Positions 20,764 to 22,805 of a stretch of DNA of 64,000 bases are shown in pieces (positions within the stretch are counted from its first letter, which is position 1; the number at the start of each line of letters is the position of its first letter). The notes beneath the pieces were generated by a model that saw nothing but the letters and a program-made list of their open reading frames with translations, did no database searches and was not told where the DNA came from. This DNA is from Escherichia phage WPEC3, in sequence record PV611058; one strand, given 5' to 3'. A program made the position numbers and the translations under genes.

Positions 20764-20877
20764 CGTTTTAATCTCTTAAAAGTGAGTAGGGAAGTGTTCC
20801 CGCTCTCGATGTAAAACATTATACGCTTTTTTCAGTACTGTGCAAGTACTTTCTACAAATACTTTTAAAATAGTTTT

Positions 20878-20969
20878 CTTTCTATATAGGAGTACTATTA
20901 TTCAGTACTGAATCAATCCAGGGGAACTATCTTTCTATATAGGAGTACTATTATTCAGTACTGAATCAA
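20878..20969. repeat. 39-bp direct repeat x2 (CTTTCTATATAGGAGTACTATTATTCAGTACTGAATCAA)
   Basis: two copies separated by 14 bp containing a PeSL-stem remnant (GGGGAACTAT). Confidence 0.8.
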
Positions 20970-21587
20970 CCAAATCACTACTACACCCCATAAAACGGCC
21001 TCAGACGCATTCTAACGCATTAATACACCTAAGCTATACATTTGCACCATTCTAATCATTCCAGGGCGTTACGGGCCGTTTAAACGCGTTGAATTATTTT
21101 CAATTATTTTGTTTTTAGGTATTGACTTGATCCTGAAAAAGCGTATAATTACTACATAGACGCGAGAAAGCGGATACCCCAGGGGGTGCGGAATTGTGCC
21201 CAAAATTCAAGATATAAAAAAAGGATACACTCCCGCACCCTAGCAGGTAAACGCACTTTCTCAGTACTGAAATATAGTACCATAGTCCGGCCCAGGATAG
21301 CAAGCAAATTAATTAAAACTTTTTTGCTTCCAGGGTATTGCTTTATTTTTTCAGTACTGTATAATAGTTCCATCAAGTCGAGAAAGACTCAAGCCCACCG
21401 GGTGCATAGTTACGCCCAAAATTCAGTACTGAAAAAATTTTTAAAAATATCCGGCCAGGCCGTTGACATTGCCCCCAGTTTATAAGATAATGATTCCAGA
21501 TTCAGAAAAATCTAACACCAGATACTGCGGGGAAACTATCCCCACGCGGTAGGGGAACTATTGGAAAAAACAAAATAAAATTTTGAT

Positions 21588-21730
21588 TTAGCCGTCTATA
21601 CTTCCAGACGTGTAACCATCTAGCCGTTTAGCCGTCCAAACGTCTAGCCATCCAGCCATCCAGAAATCTAGCCGTTTAGCCGTCTAGATGGATAGCCATC
21701 TTTACTTCCAGACTTCTGGAGGGCTAGACA
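21588..21730. repeat. iteron-like cluster of TAGCCGT(C/T) / (T/C)AGCCATC octamers
   Basis: at least 8 copies within about 140 bp, flanked by CTTCCAGAC inverted motifs. Confidence 0.65.
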
Positions 21731-22805
21731 TATCTACGCCCAAAATCCATCCAGGGTAACTACACCCAAAATCCGTCAGTACTATACCATAGATCTATCT
21801 TTTGAAAGGGAGTATTCAGTACTGCCATCATAGCCCTCACTATGTTACCCTAGGAGGATGAAGACCATCATGTAGTACTGAATACTGTTAGAGGGAATCC
21901 ACCAGCACAAGCTGGTGGCATAATGCTTTAGATTAAAATCAGTACTGACACCATTCTGTTAATATCAGTACTGTTATTACGATTTTCATATGAGGTTCAA
22001 AAAGATGTACCACCACAGGAGGAACTATCTTTTCTGTACTGTCTCACGACAGGAGGTAGAGTAAATGAATTGTTCGCAGCAACTCATCACCCCTTGAAGC
22101 TATGTAGAACATTATACAGTACTGAATCATAAAGTCAATAACTTTCTTTCATCTTTCAGTACTGATATTCTTGAGAACTACCCGACTACAAACATCATTA
22201 TATCCCACAAATCATAAACGTCCCAACGTAAATTTCAACTTTCGAAGATCCAACTTTTATTTCATAAGTACTCCAAAATTTTTAGGATCGAGATTTAGGA
22301 TGGAGTACTAACCAACTTTTTGCTGGAGCCTCAAGGGGTAATTGAATTTTACCCCGAAGGGTAAAAGGGTAATTGAAATTAAGGTGAAAGTAATAATTCA
22401 GTACTAATCATTGCGTGATTACTTTTGATTACATTTGATGTAATTTGCAAAATGGAAAAGGAGCTTGGAAACTACAAAGTACGGCAGACTTCCTCTGCCT
22501 ACTTAGTGGCATATCGACACCTTCAGTACTGAATACTTTTAGGGCAGTACTGAATCCTTCCCTAGCATTCTTGAGTAATCTTGTCTATAATAATCAGTAC
22601 TGAATCATATATAATCATTCTGTGATTCTACGGTGCTCATATAAATGTTTATATATGATTACTTATGACTACATATGATTACGGGGTTTAGCCTGGGGAG
22701 AATCCTAGTGATCGCATTTGTCCAGGCTGAATTTTAACATATATAACATATGTTAAAGCCTGTCCAATGCTTTCCCTGCGGAGCTTCCCCTGTCTATATG
22801 TTGAA

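Follow-up and report, generated by a model that had tools for sequence, protein, structure and literature searches.

What does a stretch of 2,042 bp without genes do between two blocks of small genes in the genome of a jumbo coliphage? The stretch lies at 20764-22805 of the first 64 kb of Escherichia phage WPEC3 (record PV611058); these 64,000 nucleotides are the DNA that was analyzed and are called the window here. It is bordered by the start codon of one minus-strand gene (20401-20763) and the stop codon of another (22806-23012), both of which match PHROG families of unknown function. Comparison with related genomes places the stretch across the inner boundary of a long direct terminal repeat (DTR), with 1.74 kb inside and 302 bp (0.30 kb) outside the repeat, and maps the right physical end of the virion DNA at position 22503. 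The stretch is most probably the terminal non-coding control region of this repeat, serving DNA cleavage and packaging and carrying early promoters. The initial annotation had offered a 'regulatory hub', a fair description of a region with four good sigma-70-type promoters and several gene-less promoter-leader cassettes, but it had missed the DTR boundary that defines the region.

The window is the beginning of an Asteriusvirus genome (PBECO4/121Q/G17-like, a Rak2-like jumbo coliphage) and starts exactly at the left physical terminus. A megablast search with 20700-22900 returned 43 phage records, nearly all of the Asteriusvirus type, at 87-97% identity. The window is collinear with the G17 record from the first base, and window position 1 corresponds to G17 position 1 and to the terminus of fEgEco12. 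The linear G17 genome (370,817 bp) has an exact DTR, in which 1-20668 and 350150-370817 are 100% identical. Base-by-base alignment put the end of this repeat at window position 22503 (...GGCAGACTTCCTCTGCCTACT^TAGTGGCATAT..., the caret marking the cut). The inner DTR end falls between 22503 and 22504 in five relatives with determined or deposited ends, namely G17, Sharanji, fEgEco12, vB_Ec-M-J and CRJP21. The fEgEco12 record begins with the exact reverse complement of the window sequence ending at 22503, and its opposite end is window base 1; the records of vB_Ec-M-J (annotated DTR of 21,525 bp) and CRJP21 open at the same base, homologous to window 22503. Since these homologous ends all fall at 22503, the window should be the left end of a DTR-bearing genome whose repeat spans 1-22503. 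Sequence identity among Asteriusviruses collapses about 11 nt past the cut, right after TAGTGGCATAT, as expected at a junction of repeat and unique DNA.

The window covers one genome end, and membership in the class of DTR genomes was examined in the homologues and the literature. In the homologues, the sequence up to a fixed base is found at both ends of the virion DNA. Fixed, non-permuted ends have experimental support in the literature on the relatives fEgEco12, Sharanji, Muenster, G17 and CBB. According to the published reports, the DTR measures 20,668 bp by PhageTerm in Sharanji and 20,993 bp in fEgEco12, the termini of which were determined by PhageTerm and restriction digests; the DTR of G17 was deduced by its authors from doubled read coverage, and that of CBB from doubled read coverage and pulsed-field gel electrophoresis. 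The ends of Muenster were obtained with PhageTerm. DTR lengths reported from coverage, PhageTerm, pulsed-field gels or restriction digests give a range of 20.0-22.5 kb for the Rak2-like jumbo phages G17, Sharanji, fEgEco12, vB_Ec-M-J, Muenster and CBB.

The claim that no open reading frame (ORF) of 60 aa or more occurs across about 1.9 kb holds in substance and not to the letter. Mechanical ORF calling gave three non-ATG ORFs of at least 60 aa, two of 62 and 74 aa (TTG start, minus strand) and one of 99 aa (GTG start, plus strand). The 99-aa ORF is frameshifted in PBECO4, has 69% protein identity in 121Q and contains many stops in RaK2 and Muenster; it was the only one of the three scanned against Pfam, and gave no match. 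The 62- and 74-aa ORFs are interrupted by stops in G17, 121Q or PBECO4. Coding potential was rejected for the 62-99 aa ORFs on account of these frameshifts and stops, and because the ORFs are broken in PBECO4, 121Q, G17 and RaK2 the region is non-coding in practice. About 2 kb is left unannotated at the locus in PBECO4 and 121Q, and fEgEco12 annotates only the non-conserved 99-aa ORF. This ORF, called in some records, is spurious and calls for caution among annotators. No tRNA or tmRNA was found in the window. An Rfam 15 covariance-model search of the region gave nothing at gathering score and, when relaxed to E<=1, nothing credible, the best sub-threshold matches being two eukaryotic families at 20 bits (gathering 65) and 19 bits (gathering 60).

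Conservation was assessed by mapping on the window the sensitive BLAST matches of eight distant relative loci, from GAP32 and CBB (Mimasvirus), pEa_SNUABM_47 (pEa47) and fHe-Yen9-03 (Eneladusvirus), Muenster and RaK2 (Alcyoneusvirus), Kaldavass, and SE_PL. Up to eight of these loci matched 21120-21290, up to four matched 21338-21425, four to five matched 21535-21730 and up to six matched 22260-22330. The flanking coding sequence (20600-20763 and 22806-23000) had no cross-genus BLAST matches among the eight loci. By this comparison, the non-coding blocks are the only sequence here that is conserved at the nucleotide level across genera. Their order is kept in Mimasvirus and Eneladusvirus and runs from the convergent module through the plus promoter, CGCGG(A/T)AGGGGA..., the array, ...ACACCCAAAAT... 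and GTACTCCAAAATTTTTAGGAT to the end. GAP32, pEa47, Yen9-03 and Kaldavass have the promoter/leader segment 21463..21570 and the array in the same order, and a 43-nt stretch of the unit at 21338..21430 is 91% identical in Pectobacterium phage CBB. The initial annotation had named, as grounds for dismissal, that the region might be merely divergent coding sequence in related phages; comparison did not bear this out, as the ORFs are not conserved and the non-coding blocks are.

Judged from the edges in related genomes, the DTR is bracketed by inverted copies of CT^TAG(Y)G. Read from inside outwards, the right edge is CTGCCTACT^TAGTGGCATAT in Asteriusvirus and AAACGGACT^TAGTGGCATAT in RaK2, the homologue of the Muenster PhageTerm end; the short form for Asteriusvirus and RaK2/Muenster alike is ACT^TAGTGGCATAT. 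The corresponding edges are AACAGATA^TAGTGGAAGG in GAP32 (short form ATA^TAGTGG), GAGAAGATA^TAGCGGCAGG in pEa47 (ATA^TAGCGG), whose circular record was opened exactly there, and AACAGATA^TAGCGGAAGG in Kaldavass (ATA^TAGCGG). All of these right edges have GACTT 9-11 nt upstream of the cut. On the other strand and again outwards, the left edges read GGGTAACCT^TAGCGACTTC in G17/fEgEco12 (CCT^TAGCGAC), CAGTAACGCT^TAGCGAGGCA in CBB (GCT^TAGCGAG) and TATTAGGCT^TAGCACTTTT in Muenster (GCT^TAGCAC). The pattern (C/A)(T/A)^TAG(C/T)(G/A) is thus present at eight right or left boundaries of Asteriusvirus, Alcyoneusvirus, Mimasvirus, Eneladusvirus and Kaldavass. The inverted motif copies point to site-specific cutting at both of them during packaging, and the cutting enzyme would be the terminase, by analogy with the known packaging of DTR phages. 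The motif allows Asteriusvirus genomes deposited without defined ends to be oriented and their DTR to be placed, which is useful for the annotation and engineering of therapeutic jumbo phages.

Several elements surround the cut (Table 1). In the window, GAP32, pEa47 and Muenster, a distance of roughly 110-210 nt separates the block at 22260-22330 from the end, mapped or homologous; the block is a candidate recognition site for the packaging machinery. TGATTAC has four copies in the region (0.2 expected) and is not conserved outside the genus. The repeated GATTAC and a second motif noticed at 22330-22700 were both found again, the former as the two TGATTAC sets and the latter, GGGTAATTGAA, present twice in the region. 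The last 27 nt before the cut can fold into an 11-bp snap-back hairpin (z -4.7), which was not seen at the homologous ends of RaK2, GAP32 or pEa47, nor at the left end; it was rejected as a general end feature, being restricted to Asteriusvirus.

The initial annotation had passed over an 8-bp periodic array, 0.8-0.9 kb inside the cut. Tandem Repeats Finder reported a period of 8 and 12.4 copies, and autocorrelation was 0.57-0.60 at lags 8, 16 and 24 against a background of about 0.2. The G17 array is shorter by 16 nt (two units). The distribution of the array was determined by distant BLAST with the array alone as query. Its distance from the record start is about 0.77-0.93 kb in five DTR-bearing Asteriusvirus records, 38-805 nt in Eneladusvirus and related records and 647-756 nt in Xanthomonas phage XbC2, a 368-kb jumbo phage; the same type occurs in Mimasvirus. 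Within the T5 family (Demerecviridae), such arrays are carried by Shenzhenvirus AhSzq-1 and AhSzw-1, nine Thalassavirus records (10-843 nt from the start), pVp-1 and PSTCR5. Among T7-like podoviruses (Autographiviridae), the array is present in PGT2 (at 40-114), KPV811 (71-141 nt from the right end) and phiKT. Most matches with readable record geometry are at most 1 kb from a record end; several other records carry the array internally. In AhSzq-1 the array sits in a gap of 0.95 kb without genes, some 2.8 kb away from A2, and in Pontus it lies between eight repeats resembling the DRD repeats of T5 and two TTATCCACA DnaA boxes, the equivalent of Repeat Region 3 of T5.

Thus, from its sequence distribution the array appears to accompany exact terminal repeats time and again, in three phage groups that are unrelated to one another. 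Because the same array occurs in the DTR-associated non-coding DNA of unrelated DTR phages, we infer that it offers multiple sites for protein binding and is connected with what happens at the repeat edge. A bolder proposal, which we consider rather unlikely, is that the array (TCTAGCCR / TCCAGCCA / TCTAAACR) is an unrecognised cis-element of exact-DTR phages that binds one conserved host or phage factor controlling the repeat edge and that marks a T5-like staged delivery here. Such an element would be common to Rak2-like jumbo myoviruses, several T5-family genera other than Tequintavirus and phiKT/KP34-like podoviruses. Its factor would govern either the cleavage of the ends together with the duplication of the repeat, or a pausing of DNA entry, and the array would mark the staged delivery of the 22.5-kb early-gene repeat. 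Alcyoneusviruses have a cluster of Fur-box-like AATGAGAATCATTATCATT repeats in place of the array. In Eneladusvirus and SE_PL, the convergent module likewise has its spacer filled by Fur-box-like AATGAGAATCATTATCATT and AAATGATAATCATTCGC, sequences that are absent from the window; in the phages that carry them, such repeats may place the end region under iron/Fur control.

The region is also rich in predicted promoters. Three with at least 11 of the 12 sigma-70 consensus positions lie within the 2 kb (+21122, +21463 and -22138), compared with about 0.16 expected when scaled from 5.0 per 64 kb in shuffles. The DTR contains 28 of the 36 near-consensus promoters of the window (at least 11/12); 24 of these 28 are on the minus strand, and 13 are perfect (12/12). 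Most DTR promoters are followed by a GGGGA...TCCCC stem-loop, a Shine-Dalgarno (SD) sequence and a small gene. The CAGTACTG palindrome sits in the promoter spacers, abutting the -10 element or directly following the -35 element, and has 14 copies in the region and 69 in the window (1.1 expected). A second leader type, GAGAAAG...CCCAnnGGGTGC, is carried by the plus-strand units at 21122 and 21338; about ten copies occur in the DTR, partly as convergent pairs. All parts of the unit 21463..21570 are oriented towards the array and the terminus. A plus-strand promoter near 21121 had been proposed before and is confirmed; the one proposed near 21355 has a perfect -10 element, but its -35 element is TTGCTT instead of the claimed TTGAC(T/A). 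The two gene-less stem remnants of promoter-early stem-loop (PeSL) cassettes, GGGGAAACTATCCCC and GGGGAACTAT, are both present.

From these observations, a scheme for the end region can be proposed. The virion chromosome would start at window position 1 and finish with 1-22503 in a second copy, so that the last ~1.74 kb packaged would be the region described here. During packaging of the concatemer, the terminase or an associated nuclease would cut at the inverted CT^TAG(Y)G sites, the right-hand one being 22503/22504. The conserved block some 220 nt inside the end would probably direct the cutting, perhaps together with the 8-bp array, and packaging would duplicate the repeat, as it does in T7 and T5. 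Once a cell is infected, the near-consensus sigma-70 promoters in and near the region would be used by the host RNA polymerase. One of the region's promoters would drive the first gene of the minus-strand early cluster; the remaining ones, two of which face the end, would make short non-coding leader transcripts or act by transcription itself. The array would serve as a multi-site protein-binding element linked to the biology of exact terminal repeats.

Several points weigh against a terminal control region. The boundary of WPEC3 itself is deduced from homologues that are 94-98% identical at the locus, the cut motif they have in common is only 5-7 bp, and the terminal hairpin and the TGATTAC repeats are genus-specific. 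Terminase recognition of the conserved blocks is a candidate role, and promoter activity and transcripts are predictions. A search of the left junction revealed no second copy of 22260-22330 and, apart from the short cut motif, nothing convincing that the two junctions have in common; one inverted match of 14 nt, some 400 nt beyond the repeat, was taken as chance and rejected as a mirrored block. The arrays of pVp-1, PSTCR5 and phiKT lie far from the record ends, for which permutation of the records may be the cause.

Other explanations differ in how well they accommodate the same evidence. The region had been suggested to be the graveyard of a decayed array, that is, neutral junk of decayed gene cassettes between two gene blocks. 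Gene-less promoter and stem-loop cassettes would suit this idea, and so would the recent 53-bp duplication and the indels of 16, 30 and 8 nt among close relatives. It is refuted by the conservation of the non-coding blocks across genera that show no nucleotide similarity in the flanking genes, together with the block order kept in Mimasvirus and Eneladusvirus, and can be regarded as hardly tenable. A T5-type injection stop, in which the DTR would enter first and entry would pause at the non-coding region (array and nearby repeats) until early DTR proteins act, takes up the T5-like layout of a long DTR of mostly minus-strand small early genes with a 1.8-2 kb untranslated region across its inner edge, as well as the array shared with the equivalent Demerecviridae regions of AhSzq-1 (near A2) and Pontus (between DRD-like repeats and DnaA boxes). 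However, DnaA boxes are absent from the region, and the 15 DTR ORFs scanned yielded no A1, A2 or dmp homologue; T5 lacks the 8-bp array, which is also found in T7-like podoviruses, and these are not known to use two-step transfer in the T5 sense. The phage here is a contractile-tailed jumbo phage, for which staged entry would be argued from an analogy of layout, and we consider an injection stop improbable.

Two further proposals are compatible with a terminal control region and could hold alongside it. In one, which appears doubtful, the region would be a replication origin at which orphan promoters supply primer or activating transcripts beside iteron-like array and A+T-rich DNA. The plus promoter 21463-21491 reads into an A-rich tract and the array, the region has a convergent promoter module, cumulative G-C over the window reaches its minimum at 22274, and T7 has a secondary origin promoter next to its left-end repeat arrays. 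The skew switch, however, is due to the G-poor codon position 1 (0.18 vs 0.35) of the small-ORF family at 22806-27100 and not to gene orientation; being accounted for by the codon composition of neighbouring ORFs, GC skew was discarded as origin evidence. DnaA boxes are missing from the region, the mapped origins of T5 lie near the genome centre and not in the repeat region of its terminal repeat, and a period of 8 bp is unusual for replication-initiator iterons. The other proposal, possible though still tentative, is a cluster of small RNAs, comprising leader-type RNAs from the orphan cassettes and a minus-strand RNA of about 215 nt running from 22104 to 21890. It is suggested by near-consensus promoters with no ORF behind them, by the terminator-like stem and T-run at 21241-21215 (minus strand) and by about ten similar promoter-leader units with CCCAnnGGGTGC across the DTR. 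Within the segment 21896-22105, the window, G17, 121Q and PBECO4 differ at only three positions, namely the loop of the hairpin, a single base following it and the final base, which precedes an 8-nt indel just downstream; the overall identity of these phages across 20700-22900 goes down to 89% (121Q). As RNA, the 215-nt segment has a predicted fold of -69 kcal/mol (z -5.4), which makes it a candidate small RNA. On the other side, no Rfam family was recovered (best E 0.028, a eukaryotic small Cajal body-specific RNA), the inverted repeat of the convergent module is almost invariant, with a covariation term of -0.2 kcal/mol that is uninformative on RNA structure, and the hairpin at 21899-21918 has no U-tract; the inverted repeats could act at the DNA level.

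Table 1. Features of the gene-free region and its surroundings in the window.
Feature	Position	Strand	Description
Left DTR copy	1..22503	.	~60 small minus-strand early-type genes, 28 near-consensus sigma-70 promoters, non-coding terminal region at inner end
PeSL-like promoter/stem-loop/SD cassette of gene 20401-20763	20764..20866	-	AGTACTTGCA-CAGTACTG-...TATAAT, GGGAAcacTTCCC, AAGAG, ATG
Tandem duplication, 53 bp	20877..20969	+	Two exact 40-nt copies, 20877-20916 and 20930-20969, each with ATTCAGTACTGAAT
Convergent promoter/leader module	21122..21290	.	Widest conservation, up to 8/8 relative loci, several genera
Plus promoter TTGACT-16-TATAAT, 11/12	21122-21149	+	Followed by leader GAGAAAGCGGATACCCCAGGGGGTGCGGA
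Inverted facing copy CCCGCACCCTAG...CTTTCTC	within 21122..21290		Read from minus strand
Terminator-like stem and run of seven T	21241-21215	-	
Second orphan promoter-leader unit	21338..21430	+	TTGCTT-16-TATAAT, CAGTACTG abutting -10; leader ...GAGAAAGACTCAAGCCCACCGGGTGCATAG...GCCCAAAATTCA
Plus promoter TTGACA-17-GATAAT	21463-21491	+	Heads unit 21463..21570; not in initial annotation
Stem-loop GGGGAAACTATCCCC	21531-21545	+	In unit 21463..21570
Conserved CGCGGTAGGGGAACTATTGG	within 21463..21570	+	With SD-like element and mini-ORF start
8-bp periodic array	21588..21731	+	~18 units: TTAGCCGT / CTAGCCGT / CCAGCCAT / CCAGACGT and similar
Candidate small RNA, ~215 nt	21890..22138	-	Promoter 22138-22111, segment to hairpin 21918-21899; SD/10-codon ORF on opposite strand
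Perfect hairpin CCACCAGC-ACAA-GCTGGTGG	21899-21918		-9.8 kcal/mol as DNA, z -5.3
Minus promoter TTGACT-16-TATAAT	22138-22111	-	Not in initial annotation
Conserved block AAGTACTCCAAAATTTTTAGGATCGAGATTTAGGATGG	22260..22330	.	175-245 nt inside terminus; matched in up to 6/8 distant relatives
TGATTAC repeats, period 10	22416..22449	+	55-88 nt inside cut
DTR inner boundary	22477..22514	.	...AAGTACGGCAGACTTCCTCTGCCTACT^TAGTGGCATAT; cut between 22503 and 22504
Unique-side overrun	22504..22805	.	302 bp; three CAGTACTG sites, TGATTAC repeats, inverted repeat 22603-22660
TGATTAC repeats, second set, period 10	22645-22682		142-179 nt outside cut
Stem AGCCTGG...CCAGGCT	22690-22727		Surrounds GAATCCTnnnGATnTCGCA core; core common to GAP32 and pEa47

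Smaller features of the stretch reported initially were largely recovered. The 39-bp direct repeat proposed at 20878-20969 is 40 nt long, exact and spaced by 53 bp; the duplication is recent, as G17 has a single copy. The perfect hairpin placed near 21903 has 8 bp and is found at 21899-21918. In PBECO4 the loop of this hairpin is flipped (TTGT instead of ACAA) between identical stems, as expected from template switching or cruciform processing. The SD sequence and 10-codon ORF near 22063 are likewise present on the plus strand, with the ATG at 22066; the length of this ORF is not conserved and is changed by an 8-nt indel in 121Q and PBECO4. Upstream of the array (21550-21590), a conserved SD-like AAGGGGA is followed after five nucleotides by an (A/T)TG GAA start and a mini-ORF of 3-14 codons. 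The length of the mini-ORF differs by genus, from MEF* in GAP32 to 14 codons entering the array in pEa47.

The leader cassettes and palindromes extend beyond the region. CCCAnnGGGTGC stands about 25 nt after the -10 element in units at 1428, 4178, 7449, 9783, 11992, 16830, 19241, 19309, 21177 and 21394, with convergent pairs at 9775/9783, 16830/16838 and 19241/19309. The units at 1428, 4178, 7449 and 11992 have their -35 element inside a terminator-like palindrome, AAAGGGATTGACTCCGGTCAGTCCCTTT. The cassette at 20768-20866 shows about 77-88% identity over 56-99 nt to cassettes of unrelated ~150-kb phAPEC8/rV5-like myoviruses (ESCO13, Schickermooser and others), which suggests, at the level of sequence, that coliphage families have either exchanged early regulatory cassettes or strongly converged on them. 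Among the 6-bp palindromes of the window, AGTACT has the largest excess, with 291 copies versus 21.6 expected (13.5x); it occurs in promoters and coding DNA. An excess of about 16-26x was found clade-wide (GAP32, RaK2, Muenster, Kaldavass, SE_PL, CBB and pEa47), and the excess is absent from T5 and Pontus. AGTACT/CAGTACTG may be the site of a clade-specific DNA-binding or modifying factor; a literature search on the CAGTACTG motif and on T7 concatemer-junction repeats gave nothing usable. Six 6-bp palindromes with four or six G/C (CCGCGG, CCCGGG, CGATCG, CCATGG, AGGCCT and AGCGCT) have no copy in the window.

The DTR as a whole groups about 60 small genes, all on the minus strand, into an early-gene block in the 'host-takeover' style of SPO1 and T5. 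It holds one GNAT acetyltransferase gene (8838-9194), and nearly all its other genes are of unknown function. In the collinear G17 DTR, terminators predicted by ARNOLD are annotated between many genes. At the repeat edge the GC content falls from 0.39 to 0.33. Past the edge, 22806-27100 contains a tandem family of ~60-aa minus-strand ORFs (phrog_11711) with a C-rich coding strand and G at 0.18 in codon position 1; the composition of these ORFs explains a GC skew reversal (+0.2 on the plus strand) without a change in gene orientation. About 5 kb past the edge, a row of some 17 paralogous genes begins on the plus strand (27293-47580), with products of roughly 260-450 aa. The gene at 27293-28459, the only one of that row scanned, has RCC1-like repeats (PHROG 'regulator of chromosome condensation'). 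The same neighbourhood is found in GAP32, Kaldavass, SE_PL and pEa47.

The closest parallel in layout is T5. There, the left terminal repeat spans 1-10219, the injection stop signal (iss) region 9140-10149 and a gene-free stretch 9158-10935 across the repeat end, compared with 20764-22805 and a boundary at 22503 here. Both phages have an untranslated, repeat- and palindrome-rich stretch of 1.2-1.8 kb that lies mostly inside a long exact terminal repeat and runs over into unique DNA; Repeat Region 3 of T5 is described as one that 'overruns into the unique genome'. In T5, DRD copies 1-6 are inside and 7-9 outside the repeat end, and here TGATTAC repeats occur on both sides. The terminal repeat is full of small early genes in both phages, those of T5 comprising pre-early genes on the minus strand (124-5929) and, on the plus strand, a smaller block (6495-9157). 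T5-family members from hosts other than Escherichia carry the 8-bp array in the equivalent region, and T5 itself does not. Unlike T5, the phage studied here is a jumbo myovirus with a DTR twice as long and has no DRD, DRC or IRC/IRD repeats. Paired DnaA boxes within inverted repeats (IRD'/IRC') are a feature of the T5 iss; TTWTNCACA was absent from 20764-22805 and had seven copies in the window against 12.7 expected. No T5 A1, A2 or dmp homologue was detected by PHROGs and/or Pfam in 15 DTR ORFs of 92-213 aa, which comprised 14 of the 16 minus-strand ORFs of at least 100 aa plus 20069-20347, smaller ORFs not all being scanned. No ORF of the DTR approaches the size of T5 A1 (1.67 kb). Because neither DnaA boxes nor, in the 15 DTR ORFs scanned, A1/A2/dmp homologues were found, the region is, as far as its sequence tells, built like the T5 iss region and not a member of it. 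For the questions of how long exact terminal repeats are made and what large untranslated edge regions do, which T5 also poses, the region provides a second, evolutionarily distant example of the T5-like layout.

T7 and the PeSL cassettes offer further parallels. The ends of T7 reportedly consist of a 160-bp terminal repeat flanked by short-repeat arrays (SRL/SRR) and early and replication promoters. T7 and the phage studied here have in common an exact terminal repeat, which here too would arise from site-specific concatemer cutting. In both, short direct repeats form arrays beside the terminal repeat, and a non-coding leader at the end carries strong promoters of the host type. The T7 relatives of the phiKT/KP34 kind (PGT2, phiKT and KPV811) carry the same TCTAGCCR-type array, in PGT2 and KPV811 about 40-140 nt from the record end; the repeats of T7 itself (CCTAAAG type) differ in sequence from it. 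Unlike in T7, the terminal repeat here is 22.5 kb compared with 0.16-0.5 kb, the array lies 0.8-0.9 kb from the end, and promoters for a phage RNA polymerase are lacking. PeSL cassettes are said to be a feature of T4-type phages. Their repeated sigma-70 early promoter and short G+C stem-loop before small early genes are matched throughout the DTR and, without genes, in the region. The likeness concerns the make-up of the cassettes. Unlike the PeSL hosts, this phage is not T4-type (Tevenvirinae); its promoters carry a clade-specific AGTACT/CAGTACTG element, and it has the second leader type, GAGAAAG...CCCAnnGGGTGC. The published DTRs of Rak2-like phages are the same element, and the window boundary is the homologous base. 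The reports on these relatives give the existence and length of the DTR, and the passages of them that term searches brought up contain no description of the boundary region, cut motif, array or orphan promoters. The kind of element is known, then, and the details of the region are new; it supplies a conserved inverted cut motif, a candidate recognition block and an array common to three phage families, all of them testable.

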